Source: Pseudonocardiaceae bacterium (GTDB taxonomy: Bacteria > Actinomycetota > Actinomycetes > Mycobacteriales > Pseudonocardiaceae). From it: a DNA stretch of 64,000 bases. The position numbers were made by a program, and so were the translations under genes. Position 1 is the stretch's first letter; each line of letters begins with the position of its first letter. The notes beneath the pieces are model-generated. The model was not told where the DNA came from, searched no databases, and saw only the letters and a program-made list of their open reading frames with translations. The DNA is taken from NCBI GenBank assembly GCA_035552275.1, contig DASZLR010000141.1, positions 9,186-73,185 on the forward strand, given 5' to 3'. Below, in pieces: positions 38,984-44,919 of this stretch.

Positions 38984-39175
38984 TCAACGCGCCAGACCGA
39001 ATCTGTGAAGTTGGTTGACTCGGGGTTTTTGTTCCCGGTCAATGTATTTTGGCGGGATGAAGATGGGCGTGCCATTGTCCACGTCTACTTTCCAGGTGGA
39101 GTGGTGGATCAAACCATGATGGGCGCGGCACAACAGCACCAGATTGTCCAATGAGGTCGATCCGCCATCGGCCCA
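38984..39175 (-). CDS. DUF222/HNH endonuclease, exon 2 (3' part of an intron-interrupted gene)
   Basis: Reading the minus strand from 39175 gives WADGGSTSLDNLVLLCRAHHGLIHHSTWKV...GLAR followed by a stop. This is the second half of an HNH motif and is contiguous in frame with exon 1 once 39176-43878 is removed. Confidence 0.85.
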   Translation of the reverse strand, partial: WADGGSTSLDNLVLLCRAHHGLIHHSTWKVDVDNGTPIFIPPKYIDREQKPRVNQLHRFGLAR

Positions 39176-39240
39176 GTGAGGATCGGCCAGGGGCGCGGTG
39201 ACCATCTTTCGATGGTTCCGTTTCCCCTGGCCGCCCTCCC

Positions 39241-39274
39241 GAACCGGACGTGCGACTTTCACCGCATCCGGCTC
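39241..39274 (-). ncRNA. Group II intron domain V (outer intron)
   Basis: The minus strand reads GAGCCGGATGCGGTGAAAGTCGCACGTCCGGTTC. This is a 34-nt DV consensus with the AGC triad, a GAAA tetraloop and a 2-nt bulge. It lies 9 nt after the IEP stop, and a DVI-like hairpin follows. Confidence 0.9.
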
Positions 39275-39282
39275 TCCACGAG

Positions 39283-40833: not shown

Positions 40834-40868
40834 GAACCGTGCGTGCCACTCGTCGCGGCACACGGCTC
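40834..40868 (-). ncRNA. Group II intron domain V (inner intron)
   Basis: The minus strand reads GAGCCGTGTGCCGCGACGAGTGGCACGCACGGTTC. It has an AGC triad and a basal stem GAGCCGTG/CACGGTTC, and it overlaps the IEP stop codon. Confidence 0.8.
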
Positions 40869-42669
40869 AAGCAAGCCGTGATGGCTCGCAGGCAGACAGA
40901 AATGCCGGTCCTCCGAAGCTGTCGGCATTGTGCCGACGTTTGCAGGAGGTGTGCACGAGACGGATGACCGTGTCCGACATGCCGAGTCCACTGTCGACGG
41001 TGACATGGTGCCTGCTCATCGCCTTGCGGATCACCACCATCCACCGCTCCCATTCGCGTGGGCTCTGTGGCTGGTGGTCAGCGTGCAAGAGGAGTTCACC
41101 GCAGAGTGGGCAGCGCCCATGTTGCAGCTTGAGCAGCCGCAGCCCGAACGCATCAATCGGCGGCGGCGCTCCTTTGCGTCGCCTATCGGCCCAATAGTCG
41201 GTCAGGCCCGGATCGTCTGGCGACGACGTGCCGGAGACCATCTGGTGTCGGACGATCTTCGTCCAGGCGAACTTGCGTAGATGGGCGTTGGTGTCACGGT
41301 CACCGAAGACCCATCTGTCCTGTCTGGACTTGTTGAACTGGCCGAAGTACCGGGTGACGATCCAGTGCCTCGACTTGTTCTGGTGGCCATGCTTGGCCCA
41401 CTTGTAGGCGAGCTTCCACATGTAGTCGTCCAGCGCCGTGAACGCCGTGCTGGACACCACCGTCCGGTAGTAGGCCGACCAGCCGCGCACGATCGGATCG
41501 ATCGCGTGCAGCACTGCACTGACATTGGCCCCGCGCAGGGCTTTCATTTCGGTGCGGAGCCGTTCCCGGATCCGTCTCAAGGCCGCCGGGCTCGGCTTGA
41601 TCAGCAGCTTGCCGTCGTATCGGCGGACGTTGAACCCCAAGAAGTCGAAGCCATCCTGTTCAACGTGGACGATGCGCGTCTTGTCCTCGTTGAACGCCAG
41701 ACCTCTCGGGGCCAGCCAGACGGCGAGCCGTGTCTTGACCTGTTCGGCCTCGTCGCGTGAATGACACAACGCGACCAGGTCGTCGGCATACCTGATCAGC
41801 GCCGGGCAGCCTTCCACCGACTCGGCGGCGTGCGTGCCGAGCTTGCGGTAGCGGACACCGGCGGCCTGTTCCAATCCATGCAAGGCAACGTTGAGCAACA
41901 AGGGACTGACGACTCCGCCCTGGGGAGTTCCTTCTTCGGTCGGAGTCAACCGATCACGCTCGACCACTCCCGCTTTCAGCCACTGCTCGACCAACCCTCT
42001 CGCGGGGAACGAGCCGAGCTGGGCGAGGAGGTGGTTGTGGTCGATGCGGTCGAACGCCGCTGTCAGATCCGCGTCCAACACCCACATCCGCCGAGGGTTG
42101 CGGCCCTTGAGCGTGAGATAGATGGCTGAGATCGCGTCCTGACAGCCGCGGCCGGGCCTGAAGCCGTAGGACTTCGGCTCGAACCGCGCTTCCCACTCAG
42201 GTTCCAGCGCGTTGACCACCCGCGCTTGAAGGACCCGGTCAGCGATCACCGGGATACCCAAGGGGCGCTGCTTTCCGTTGGCCTTCGGGATCAGCACTCG
42301 CTTGACCGGCCGGGGCTTCCACGACGACGAGCGATACTGCGCCCAGCGGGCCAACTCGGCCTTGGACTGCGGCAGCAACGCCGTCCTTCCATCCACCCCA
42401 GGGGTCGTGCGACCAGCGTTGATCTCCGTCACTCGGCGAACGCTCAGCAGTGTGTTCGCGCGAGATCGGAGCATCAGCTTCTGTAAGTTGCGGACCCGTT
42501 TGAGGTCCCCTGCCTGCGACGCCGTGAAGATCCTCTGCCTCAGACGCCGTACGTCGTCCTCGAGGGCCCGCCAGTCGATCGCTTGCCAGTCAAGGATTCT
42601 GTCCTCTGGTCCGTTCACCACCGTTGTGGTGGTGTCCAACTTGTCCGTCGGTTCTGGTGTCATCCTCAT
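40867..42669 (-). CDS. Group II intron-encoded reverse transcriptase/maturase with a C-terminal HNH endonuclease domain, inner intron
   Basis: 600 aa. The N-terminus DWQAIDWRALEDDVRRLRQRIF is typical of IEPs. RT motifs GIPVIADRVLQ and IRYADDLVAL are present, as is an X domain. The C-terminal CPLCGELLL...HHV...VHTSCKRRH is an En domain. Confidence 0.9.
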   Translation of the reverse strand: MRMTPEPTDKLDTTTTVVNGPEDRILDWQAIDWRALEDDVRRLRQRIFTASQAGDLKRVRNLQKLMLRSRANTLLSVRRVTEINAGRTTPGVDGRTALLPQSKAELARWAQYRSSSWKPRPVKRVLIPKANGKQRPLGIPVIADRVLQARVVNALEPEWEARFEPKSYGFRPGRGCQDAISAIYLTLKGRNPRRMWVLDADLTAAFDRIDHNHLLAQLGSFPARGLVEQWLKAGVVERDRLTPTEEGTPQGGVVSPLLLNVALHGLEQAAGVRYRKLGTHAAESVEGCPALIRYADDLVALCHSRDEAEQVKTRLAVWLAPRGLAFNEDKTRIVHVEQDGFDFLGFNVRRYDGKLLIKPSPAALRRIRERLRTEMKALRGANVSAVLHAIDPIVRGWSAYYRTVVSSTAFTALDDYMWKLAYKWAKHGHQNKSRHWIVTRYFGQFNKSRQDRWVFGDRDTNAHLRKFAWTKIVRHQMVSGTSSPDDPGLTDYWADRRRKGAPPPIDAFGLRLLKLQHGRCPLCGELLLHADHQPQSPREWERWMVVIRKAMSRHHVTVDSGLGMSDTVIRLVHTSCKRRHNADSFGGPAFLSACEPSRLA

Positions 42670-43878
42670 CGTTTCTTCACGAGCTCACCTGGCCCACGTC
42701 AGCACCCTTTCGGGTCCGGGTATCGACCCGGTATCCGGCCAGTTATCCGAAGCGACCGGCGAAGGAACTGGTTATGCTGCCTCGGTTTCCTGCTTCCTTT
42801 CGGCGACCGGCATTGGCTTCTTGGGCCATCCTGCGTCCGCTGGAGGATCGGGCCTTCCTCACGGTCGGCTTGCCGGAAACATCGTTGTTCCCGGACTCCA
42901 ACGGAGTTGTCACGTTCCGCACGAGCGAGATCCGACCGGGGTGGGTGCCCCCTATACCCCGAGGACGACGGTGTTCTCCCGACCAGCATAGGGTCTTCCG
43001 GTCGGCGTCTGCCGCTTTTCAGCGGCCAGTCCTTGACCCTGCTGCAACATCCCATCGGCGGGGTTTCCGATGACGAGGCATCATCAGGGGTTCACTCGCG
43101 TTCACCCGTCCGGTCTTCCCCGTGACCTGTGACTCCCGGATGGAACGGGAGTCCTTGGGTCTGTTCACCTGAGCTTCGAACCCCGCCGTTACCAGCGACG
43201 CACGTCAGGCCGGGGACAGATCCACGAACACCGACCTGGAACTACACCTTCGACATCAGTCGAACCTCCAAAATGCGTTCACTCAACTCGTGCGACCTCG
43301 TGTCGCACCCCGCCCTCGGACTACTACGGCGACTCCGCCCCACTCCGAGACCATCGATGGGCAATGGCATCTACCCGCCGCACCACCGGCCGTGGCGCGA
43401 GTAGGGAGTCCCGAACTGGTTCCCGTGTTCACGTGATTCCGATCGATGGAGGAGGCATCCAGCTTTACCCCGACGGCTCCCCGCGAGTACGCCACAGACA
43501 TTCCCCGCAGGCTGCCCGAACCCACCAACCCGATTCGGACGGGCGCTACACCTACCATTCGGTTCACGCGCACCGCTTACCGACCCACATGCACCGCCAG
43601 CCAAAACTTACCGTGACGGTGACATCCATCCACCAGGTTCGAGTCGGTTCCACTTAACGAGGCCTCAGACACTGGTTTCTCGCGTATACCTTTCCATCTC
43701 GCTCACCGAGCCCGCCTCATCTGGCAGTGCTGACACGACTCGACTTTGTCAGGGCCGCTTGCCACCCAACCCACCATTCCCACGGGTCAGGCTGCCCTCA
43801 GCTTCACCGAACCGCTGTGACGATTCGGCGGCAGAGTCCTTTCACCTCCGCTCGGAAATCACGCGCCTCACGGCGCAC

Positions 43879-44919
43879 GTGCACACGGTGGTGCGCGTTT
43901 GTCCATTGTGGAGGACGATCGCAGCTCGGAAACGCGCATCCTCGGTCCCGGAACACCAACGCCTTCCGGATCGCGGTCGGGATCGTGCGGCTGCTCCGAC
44001 CGACATCGAGGGGTTCGGAGCGGGACCCGAGCACCATGGGCAGGATGCGCGCATCGCAGGCGATCCGCCGGGCCTGGGAGGCTTTCAGGCTCAGTCCGCC
44101 TTCCAGGGTGGCGGTGTGCAGGGTTGCGCCGGCGACTTGGTCGCGTAGCACGTCCCAGGGCAGGGTGACGGTGAGGTGCGGTTTCTGGCCGCCGTCCTCG
44201 GGGAGTTCGCCGGAGTCGGTGACGAGTTTGAAGACATCGGCCAGGGCGTCGCCGTGGCGCTCGGCGAGCGTGCGGCGGTCCGGCCGACCCTCGTCGCCGC
44301 GCGGTGTGGACAGTGCGGACAGGGTTCCGGTGAACAGGGCCCCGGTTTCGGGTTCCAGATCACAGATCGCGACGACCCGTCCGGATTTCTTCACGGTGTA
44401 GCGGACTTCGTTGCGCGGTGTGGCGAGCTCGTCTTCGTGCGGCGCCGATCCGTCCTGGTCCTCGCGGGCGAGGATCTCACGGCCCAGCCGCCGCACGATC
44501 AACGGATCCAACTGGTGGGCGGCCTGCACCAGAATCCGCTGCGTCGACTCGTACAACTCGGGGGCCAGGGGTGGGAGTTTGGCGAGGGTGTCCACGATGA
44601 CCGTGATGTGCTCGGGGTGTAGCACCCCGGCATCAGCGGCCGCCCCCATGATCGACCACTTCTCGAGTTGTCCGGCCCGCTGCACCCGGCGCTTCGCGTC
44701 GGCGGTGGTGATCGCCAACCGGTCGTGCAGCAACGCCGCGGTGTCCCGATGCCCCCAGTCGCGGGCCACACCACGGCGGTCCAACTCGCCGATGGCGCGC
44801 AGCATCCGCGCGTGTCGCAGCCGATCCTCACGCTCCAACTCGGCGATCTGATCGAGCAACTCCTCATCACCGCAACGCCACCATCCGGCGTCCGGCGCGT
44901 CTTCCCGTTGAGTGCTCAT
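43879..44919 (-). CDS. DUF222/HNH endonuclease (13E12-repeat-family-like), exon 1
   Basis: The N-terminus MSTQREDAPDAGWWRCGDEELLDQIAELER... has DUF222-like character. The exon ends ...CAFPSCDRPPQWTNAHHRVH at 43879. The track ORF continues into the intron for 24 codons and then stops. Confidence 0.85.

Follow-up and report, generated by a model that had tools for sequence, protein, structure and literature searches.

An HNH endonuclease gene split at a codon boundary

The window analysed here is a 64,000-nucleotide (nt) stretch of a Pseudonocardiaceae bacterium assembly (GCA_035552275.1, contig DASZLR010000141.1, positions 9,186 to 73,185 of the forward strand), and our subject is a DUF222-HNH endonuclease gene on its minus strand that is interrupted by a 4703-nt insert of group II intron sequence between positions 43879 and 39175. 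The locus was read on the minus strand from 38700 to 45300, and the exon join was recomputed there. The gene is present in only one copy within the 64-kb window and is divided into two exons:

Positions 43879-44919, minus strand: exon 1 of the DUF222-HNH gene, 1041 nt and 347 codons ending in ...NAHHRVH, taken from the open reading frame (ORF) list and its translation.
Positions 38984-39175, minus strand: exon 2 of the DUF222-HNH gene, 192 nt, 63 codons plus the stop, beginning WADGGSTSLDNLVLLCRAHHGLIHH, taken from translation and from alignment to intact homologues.

Exon 1 ends ...CACCACCGTGTGCAC at 43879, with CAC CAC CGT GTG CAC as its last codons, and exon 2 begins TGGGCCGATGGCGGA at 39175 with the codons TGG GCC GAT GGC GGA. 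Both exons are multiples of three in length and meet in phase 0, and their in-frame join gives a 410-amino acid (aa) ORF that reads NAHHRVH/WADGGSTSLDNLVLLCRAHH (a slash marks a junction here and below). In the joined protein Pfam recognises DUF222 (PF02720) at residues 24-325 (E 2.1e-32) and HNH (PF01844, E 6.4e-6) as a single contiguous stretch at residues 333-370 that spans the exon junction. Alignment of the spliced-form protein with 15 uninterrupted homologues is gap-free across H347/W348, with no residue lost or duplicated at the junction, and the invariant residues C328, C333, H343, H344, W348, G352, N358, C363, H366, H367 and H371 are all kept. The initial annotation of this DNA had proposed that a group II intron interrupts the gene within its HNH motif at a codon boundary, and the Pfam assignments, the Rfam model RF00029 and the homologue alignment bear this out to a degree well past chance; its coordinates and strings on the minus strand were all correct when the window was re-read and the join recomputed. 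Restoration of the frame upon excision also holds as a formal property of the joined sequence, which would encode a canonical DUF222-HNH protein of 410 aa.

Many uninterrupted DUF222-HNH proteins were retrieved in a database search with the joined protein, with identities of up to 65%. Uninterrupted DUF222 paralogues in the same genome, for which the initial annotation had proposed a search, are represented by P0243 (HWE90636.1; 60% identity), which probably derives from the same metagenome-assembled genome (MAG) as the window, since its accession number is a neighbouring one. The public annotation does not treat the HNH gene as one unit: in it exon 1 appears as a 371-aa 'hypothetical protein' (P0241, window 43804-44919) that reads through into the intron, and exon 2 as a short 55-aa ORF (window 38984-39550).

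Two nested group II introns in the insert

Previously described as one 4.7-kb group II intron, the insert resolves into two complete introns, one of which lies nested within domain IV of the other; they belong to different lineages, with intron-encoded proteins (IEPs) of ~37% identity. On the minus strand RF00029 detects two domain V/VI elements at its gathering threshold, at 39176-39276 and 40793-40870. The insert also contains two full reverse transcriptase (RT)/maturase ORFs on the same strand, both above the NCBIfam TIGR04416 cut-off, and the non-coding stretch ahead of the first ORF is ~1.2 kb long, twice what one intron needs, with room for two 5' ribozyme halves. (Cut-offs were 300 bits for TIGR04416 and gathering scores of 40 for RF00029 and 34 for RF02012.) The second RF00029 match, the second RT/maturase ORF and the length of the non-coding lead had all gone unremarked in the initial annotation. 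A second GTGCG motif (GTGCGACACGAGG) is located at 43308. The parts of the two introns are as follows:

Positions 43878-43309 and 40792-39176, minus strand: outer intron, 2187 nt in total, between codons H347 and W348.
Positions 43309-43878, minus strand: 5' segment of the outer intron, 570 nt, which begins with GUGCGCC and comprises domains I-III together with the 5' half of the hairpin at the base of domain IV, delimited by colinearity with the uninterrupted homologues L004, L030, L005, L006 and L008.
Positions 39176-40792, minus strand: 3' segment of the outer intron, 1617 nt, with the 3' half of the domain IV hairpin, the IEP ORF and domains V and VI.
Positions 39283-40737, minus strand: outer IEP ORF, 484 aa plus stop, with RVT_1 and GIIM (Pfam) and YADD at 39862-39876.
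Positions 39176-39276, minus strand: outer domains V and VI, RF00029 at 61.1 bits (E 1.5e-9, full model), with domain V at 39241-39274.
Positions 40793-43308, minus strand: inner intron, 2516 nt, from 5' GUGCGAC to 3' CUACCCGAC.
Positions 43151-43239, minus strand: fragment of inner domain I, RF02012 (group-II-D1D4-7) at 35.4 bits.
Positions 40867-42669, minus strand: inner IEP ORF, 600 aa, with RVT_N, RVT_1 and GIIM (Pfam) and YADD at 41776-41790.
Positions 40793-40870, minus strand: inner domains V and VI, RF00029 at 52.1 bits (E 2.4e-7, full model 1-77), with domain V at 40834-40868.

In silico deletion of 43308-40793 leaves 2187 nt that align over their full length (1-2187) with uninterrupted ~2.15-kb introns, whose hosts are a Mycobacterium MAG, an uncultured actinomycete MAG, Kutzneria sp. 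744, Streptomyces sp. A5-4 and a Streptosporangiaceae isolate. With the metagenomic relative L003 the remainder forms a single colinear block across the cut (outer positions 305-2184, 76.5% identity, 1906 columns). The nest junctions read gtagtagtccgagggcggg/GTGCGAC...CTACCCGAC/aaagccgtccacatggcgaagg, and the uninterrupted relatives read gtagtagtccgaggNcgggaaagccgNNcacatggcgaagg at this position. An assembly artefact is unlikely because a separately assembled Joint Genome Institute (JGI) contig has the same 11.3-kb arrangement and is 99.84% identical to it. We are strongly confident that the insert represents a twintron, one complete intron within another, with each lineage specific to its own site. 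Removal of the inner intron is predicted to create the junction GAGGGCGGG/AAAGCCGTC (longer form TCCGAGGGCGGG/AAAGCCGTCCAC), and ligation of the outer exons the junction CGTGTGCAC/TGGGCCGAT (longer form CACCGTGTGCAC/TGGGCCGATGGC).

The outer intron and its lineage

The outer intron starts with GTGCGCCGTGAGG at 43878, where GUGCGCC fits GUGYG, and ends ...GGCCGATCCTCAC (...CCGAUCCUCAC) at 39176, and these ends are common to more than 80 family members. Reading of the sequence places the bulged branch A 8 nt from the 3' end, as noted initially, and the domain V of the initial annotation, at 39241-39274, lies inside the RF00029 match. RNAalifold, applied to eight homologues, yielded 166 pairs, 91 of them with compensatory changes. 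The outer IEP scores 394.5 bits against TIGR04416, carries no endonuclease domain, and is 100% identical to HWE89922.1, a 'group II intron reverse transcriptase/maturase [Pseudonocardiaceae bacterium]'. Its start codon agrees with the homologue consensus MPEDAPVNIG; the database versions of both IEPs (P0001 and P0121) begin at other start codons than the first ATG of the ORFs.

The codon boundary HHxxx/WxxGG is occupied by relatives of the outer intron in nine or more further HNH genes, whose exon sequences clearly differ (loci L003, L004, L030, L124, L164/165, L166/167, L168, L169, L170/171 and L178-181; calls were made among 83 loci by manual reading, with frameshifts and imprecise 3' ends among them). 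The IEPs of these HNH-site relatives are 70-77% identical to that of the window, the nearest at 77%, with one more at 57%, and in L166 a DUF222 ORF is found upstream of the intron. One relative is 100% identical over 2000 nt of intron at HNH genes whose 3' exons are 75-90% identical, which points to recent movement of an outer-lineage intron between diverged HNH genes, because the intron is identical while the exons have diverged. The earlier view of the insert as a mobile element within a selfish-type and presumably multi-copy gene family (in that annotation the 13E12-type family) is supported, as is the suggestion that its site would permit spread among paralogues, given the shared codon and the identical intron beside diverged 3' exons. 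Among the matches listed in a metagenome scan with the outer IEP alignment, identity reached at most 66%. None of the HNH-site relatives collected came from a cultured host.

More distant members of the clade (55-69% IEP identity) are found within conserved transposase motifs (IS3-like, IS256-like and others) and within the RT motif GFDFLG of other introns. From these positions, the habit of the clade appears to be insertion into a conserved motif of a multi-copy mobile gene, of which the HNH site is one specialisation. The closest plasmid relative of the outer IEP is that of L195 (Rhodococcus erythropolis JCM 2895 plasmid pR09L01, 68.5% identity, intron 5' end at 1950). We considered L195 as an HNH-site copy and rejected it: the intron interrupts the IS256-type transposase motif ...VQTCVIHLIRN/, in a split gene that is missing from the feature table of PLSDB, which is known to be incomplete. 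Outer-type introns also lie in the RT motif GFDFLG/F of other IEP ORFs (L146 at 928 and L157 at 905), that in L146 splitting an inner-type IEP. Two outer relatives, L005 (Kutzneria sp. 744) at 4402 and L134 at 285, occupy the other conserved His pair of HNH motifs (RRHHRYK/H and LLCTYH-CA/), which suggests that recognition of CAY-CAC codons may be a common theme of the outer relatives. In L176, L177 and L178 (P0028) the same intron has three different flanks, being at the HNH site in L178, between an HNH 5' exon and a non-HNH 3' exon in L176 and in non-HNH sequence in L177, a pattern that points to ectopic insertion or to recombination between copies. The HNH-site relative L003 (ENA ERZ27257096 k141_1207889, 1-2432) has a different intron nested in its domain I, with an IEP of 594 aa that contains Intron_maturas2 and an AI2M-like HNH domain; introns of at least two lineages have therefore entered the outer family, at two or more sites.

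The domain IV hairpin and the inner intron

Outer domain IV has at its base a small hairpin, 55 nt ahead of the outer IEP start codon, which the inner intron divides:

Positions 43309-43315, minus strand: 5' half of the domain IV hairpin, GGGCGG plus G.
Positions 40783-40792, minus strand: 3' half of the domain IV hairpin, AAAG plus CCGTCC.

The hairpin has a 6-bp stem and a GAAAG/GAGAG loop (here the slash separates alternative loops). Insertion of the inner intron is into this loop, directly behind the first G and ahead of AAAG. Within the outer family the hairpin is present in 87 distinct variants among the collected loci, and all six pairs are kept in 81 of these through 44 different stems; the RNAalifold prediction from the eight homologues contains the same hairpin, for which the support from covariation is strong. 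The outer-type intron of L009 (Nonomuraea sp. B19D2 contig_128, ~558-600) has an empty hairpin, GGGCGGGAAAGCCGTCC, identical to the invaded one of the window. The outer ribozyme core (domains I-III, V and VI) remains intact because the inner intron occupies a peripheral loop. For the same reason outer splicing may not strictly need prior inner splicing, and a strict inner-before-outer order may not obviously be required.

The inner IEP scores 326.7 bits against TIGR04416, and its best match among proteins of solved structure is chain C of 6ME0 (E 1.5e-104), the T. elongatus TeI4h protein. Its C-terminal extension has the pattern CxxC...HH...HxxC, reading CPLCG...HH...HTSC, and no Pfam HNH match was obtained for the C-terminal 131 aa at E values up to 10. 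The RF02012 match in domain I is also present in the relatives L023 and L182.

Full-length relatives of the inner intron span 80-84% nt identity and have identical ends and an identical position in the hairpin, both in the metagenome contigs L182/L183 (83.6%) and in the Streptomyces genomes L184-186 (80%). Their junctions are the same throughout, ...GTAGTAGTCCG(A/C)GG(G/A)CGGG/intron/AAAGCCGTCCACATGGC, and the invaded stems in all three contexts have the form GG(A/G)CGG. The IEPs of the introns that host these relatives are 57-59% identical to the outer IEP of the window, versus 80-83% for the inner IEPs, and the twintron of L182 resides in a transposase gene (after DPFHVVK) and not in an HNH gene. 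Because the inner copies diverge far less than their host introns, the comparison implies that the inner lineage invaded separate outer introns independently. L187, with 71% identity to the inner IEP, is un-nested.

Two further nests were observed among inner relatives. L184 (Streptomyces chiangmaiensis JBHTFT010000001.1, 5806586-5816403, reversed; locus 630-7660) is a nest of four group II introns, in which intron C starts at 630, intron A (648-2790) follows nt 18 of C, intron B (2815-7532) lies 24 nt further, and an inner-type intron (3349-5891) occupies the domain IV hairpin loop of intron B. In L023 (MAG Actinomycetota KAP bin67, 1-2494) a relative with a 68%-identical IEP has as its host an outer-type intron, whose domain I it interrupts before AGGTGTACG and whose domain IV hairpin is empty.

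Recognition of the two target sites

Candidate exon-binding sites (EBS), which would pair with intron-binding sites (IBS) in the flanking exon, were located in both introns, together with a copy-specific insertion in outer domain I:

Positions 43650-43655, minus strand: outer EBS2, AAGTGG, from a part of domain I that is unpaired, assigned by covariation with the exon.
Positions 43553-43560, minus strand: candidate outer EBS1 loop, GAATGGTA, with the HNH-lineage form GA(N)TGG(Y)A.
Positions 43591-43629, minus strand: copy-specific 39-nt insertion in a terminal loop of outer domain I, folding as its own extra hairpin.
Positions 43066-43070, minus strand: inner EBS2, TCGGA, pairing with TCCGA.

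In a family-wide scan for exon-complementary columns, the outer EBS2 column (A[AGT]GTGG) covaries with exon positions -13 to -8, which cover the second His codon and the codon that follows, with 4.11 of 6 positions paired versus 2.18 after shuffling; examples are AGGTGG with TCACCT and ATGTGG with TCACAT. The candidate EBS1 loop pairs over at least 5 bp with its own IBS1 in five of nine close relatives, versus 14% in cross-comparisons. Two other assignments for outer EBS1 were discarded. GGTGCRCG in domain I forms a perfect 7-mer in L004 and is conserved whatever the target, and the family-wide EBS1 hairpin has in the HNH lineage a loop of 3-5 nt with no own-versus-cross signal, so that the preceding loop was preferred.

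For the inner intron, TCGGA faces TCCGA at positions -12 to -8 of its 5' exon, i.e. the outer intron, and L187 has TCGAG facing CTCGA, a compensatory change that identifies TCGGA as the inner EBS2. CCCGCC, a perfect 6-bp match to IBS1, was rejected as inner EBS1, being nearly unchanged in L187 despite the different target there.

The 39-nt insertion is absent from all 12 close relatives. Its 3' side and the bases that follow give GTGCATGT at 43587-43594, which could form 8 bp (three of them G-U) with the final 8 nt of exon 1, a match whose probability of arising by chance was estimated at 2-8%.

Proposed history and alternative explanations

We consider it very probable, if slightly less firmly than the nesting itself, that an intact DUF222-HNH endonuclease gene here hosts a group II twintron, with one lineage homing to the HNH motif and the other to the domain IV hairpin. 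In the proposed history the outer intron would enter an HNH paralogue by retrohoming, its EBS2 pairing at the conserved HNH His codons (CAY-CAC) and the next two, variable, codons supplying IBS1. The inner intron would later reverse-splice into the domain IV loop of the outer intron; its lineage would retrohome into outer-family introns with a GG(A/G)CGG stem, EBS2 pairing with TCCGA just upstream of the stem. Introns that lack an endonuclease (En) prime from nascent strands at replication forks (PMC4424553). The host gene would be transcribed through both introns, the inner intron excised with its own maturase and the domain IV hairpin thereby restored; the outer IEP could then be translated and aid splicing of the outer intron, and the ligated mRNA would yield the 410-aa nuclease. 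Unspliced RNA would yield only the 371-aa product, which lacks the second half of the HNH motif. Continued splicing of the two introns, with production of the nuclease, we judge to be about as likely as not.

Several points weigh against this reading. The source is a MAG and splicing is deduced from its sequence, and the mobility of both introns is suggested by their recurrence at the same sites only. Covariance models, to which the initial annotation had looked for support along the whole insert, found domains V/VI above the gathering score but no Rfam D1-D4 family matched outer domains I-IV, even at E values up to 5, and the structure of these domains is modelled from homology and RNAalifold. 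The exon pairings anticipated there were likewise recovered in part: EBS2 was located by covariation, but in the window copy only 4 of its 6 bp form (GTGG with CCAC) and the candidate EBS1 loop, a tentative assignment, makes just 2 bp, and for the inner EBS1 a tentative pairing of only 3 bp was found. Homing to domain IV appears to be a trait of a sub-lineage, seen in only three independent contexts, and the 100%-identical outer-lineage copies come from short-read assemblies, which can collapse repeats.

Of the alternatives, the one that survives best is that at least one of the introns no longer splices, the HNH gene is inactivated and decay is under way, a possibility that we hold to be real if less than even. 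Inefficient splicing is expected of an intron whose pairing is poor (PMC2882425), and by this logic the weak pairing of the outer copy with exon 1 could mean poor splicing. The copy-specific insertion in domain I would fit such a relic, as would the decay of some related host genes (frameshifts in the 3' exons of L004 and L030) and the fact that most bacterial intron copies are inactivated (PMC4424553). The window, however, presents little decay of its own: both IEP ORFs are full length, with YADD present and 100% coverage against homologues, both domain V/VI elements exceed the Rfam gathering score, both exons are open with every invariant HNH and DUF222 residue kept, and the 39-nt insertion falls in a terminal loop rather than in a conserved helix.

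It is unlikely that the two introns were nested beforehand and moved as a unit into this HNH gene. Mobility of composite twintrons has been considered possible (PMC2882425), and no copy of this outer intron free of the inner one was found, the nearest relative being only 77% identical in its IEP. On the other hand, all sampled HNH-site relatives of the outer intron in which this part of domain IV is on the contig lack an inner intron there, and the inner lineage occurs in very different outer introns and host genes while being far less diverged itself, which is the signature of separate invasions.

A more elaborate scheme can be drawn as a three-tier selfish chain, in which the host nuclease, produced only once splicing has occurred, would nick sibling HNH genes in or close to the stretch that encodes the motif and so provide the primer that the protein of the En-less outer intron cannot generate, which might be why this intron lives in such genes, the inner intron would gate the outer maturase through the split hairpin, and the 39-nt insert with GTGCATGT would be a new exon-binding site rescuing splicing at a non-cognate paralogue; we regard it as speculative and very improbable.

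Hardly credible is a single, unusually long 4.7-kb group II intron with a duplicated or accessory RT gene in domain IV: its outermost ends, GTGCG at 43878 and the close of domains V/VI at 39176, do resemble those of a single intron, but domains V/VI occur complete a second time at 40793-40870, the internal block of 2516 nt starts with a GTGCGAC of its own, contains a domain I match and recurs with the same ends as a discrete unit at other loci, alone in L187, and outer homologues without it are ~2.15 kb long. An equally negligible chance is given to a chimera of repeated intron sequences made in assembly or binning, for although introns are repeats that short-read metagenome assemblies mis-join, the separate JGI contig agrees over 11.3 kb with 0.16% differences, the base-precise junctions restore both a conserved hairpin and a conserved ORF, and isolate genomes show the same nesting, among them that of Streptomyces chiangmaiensis with a 10.4-Mb contig.

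Comparison with known systems

Bacterial twintrons have been considered rare, and their outer introns escape detection by at least one genome-wide intron pipeline (PMC8919778). From this locus and its relatives, nesting in Actinobacteria is seen to be recurrent and site-specific, with one lineage apparently tuned to the His-His/Trp codons of HNH genes and a second to a hairpin loop in domain IV of the first. They offer a natural two-level system for the study of retargeting by EBS change, of maturase discrimination between co-resident introns and of the importance of splicing order, and would make a good experimental system if a cultured host were found. For annotation, the consequence is that a gene now split into two unrelated 'hypothetical' fragments can be recognised as one. 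No published group II intron insertion in a DUF222/13E12-type HNH gene was found in the searchable literature, a body of work outside which most subscription journals fall.

The closest parallel is in Thermosynechococcus elongatus, where a conserved position in domain IV of F1 introns (TeI4) is the insertion site of F3 introns (TeI3) and where separate recent invasions of dispersed outer introns were inferred from the lower divergence of the inner copies (Mohr et al. 2010, PMC2882425). Both there and here the inner intron homes to a single conserved position in domain IV, at or shortly before the beginning of the outer IEP ORF, and its copies show less divergence than the introns in which they reside. 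The T. elongatus inner introns, however, are ORF-less, belong to the same family as the outer ones and are mobilised by the outer IEP in intergenic twintrons, whereas the inner intron described here has its own IEP, belongs to another lineage and targets a hairpin loop 55 nt upstream of the ATG, within a coding gene.

The ~5.4-kb twintron of Trichodesmium erythraeum was in 2015 the only one known inside a bacterial protein-coding gene (Pfreundt and Hess, PMC4649490), and it resembles the present one in interrupting a conserved gene of this kind. Sequential splicing was demonstrated experimentally there, while the window twintron is known from sequence. The two differ also in their hosts, a conserved cellular gene of a cyanobacterium in the one case and a selfish-type, presumably multi-copy HNH gene of an actinobacterium in the other, where both introns recur at their sites.

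As recounted in PMC4424553, the nests of Methanosarcina acetivorans (Dai and Zimmerly 2003) likewise arise by repeated site-specific homing into introns, and a multi-level nest is also present in L184; in that account the archaeal nests are without coding exons and target intron ORFs, unlike the non-coding hairpin loop targeted here in a nest that lies within an ORF. Introns resident in mobile elements (Dai and Zimmerly 2002, as cited in PMC2882425 and PMC4424553) provide a further likeness to the wider outer clade, with its positions in transposase and RT motifs. Twintrons that arise by domain IV homing, multi-level nests and a sequentially spliced twintron in a bacterial coding gene are therefore known already; new are the host phylum and the host gene, a lineage that homes to the HNH motif, an inner intron that comes from another lineage and encodes an IEP of its own, and a hairpin loop as its target.

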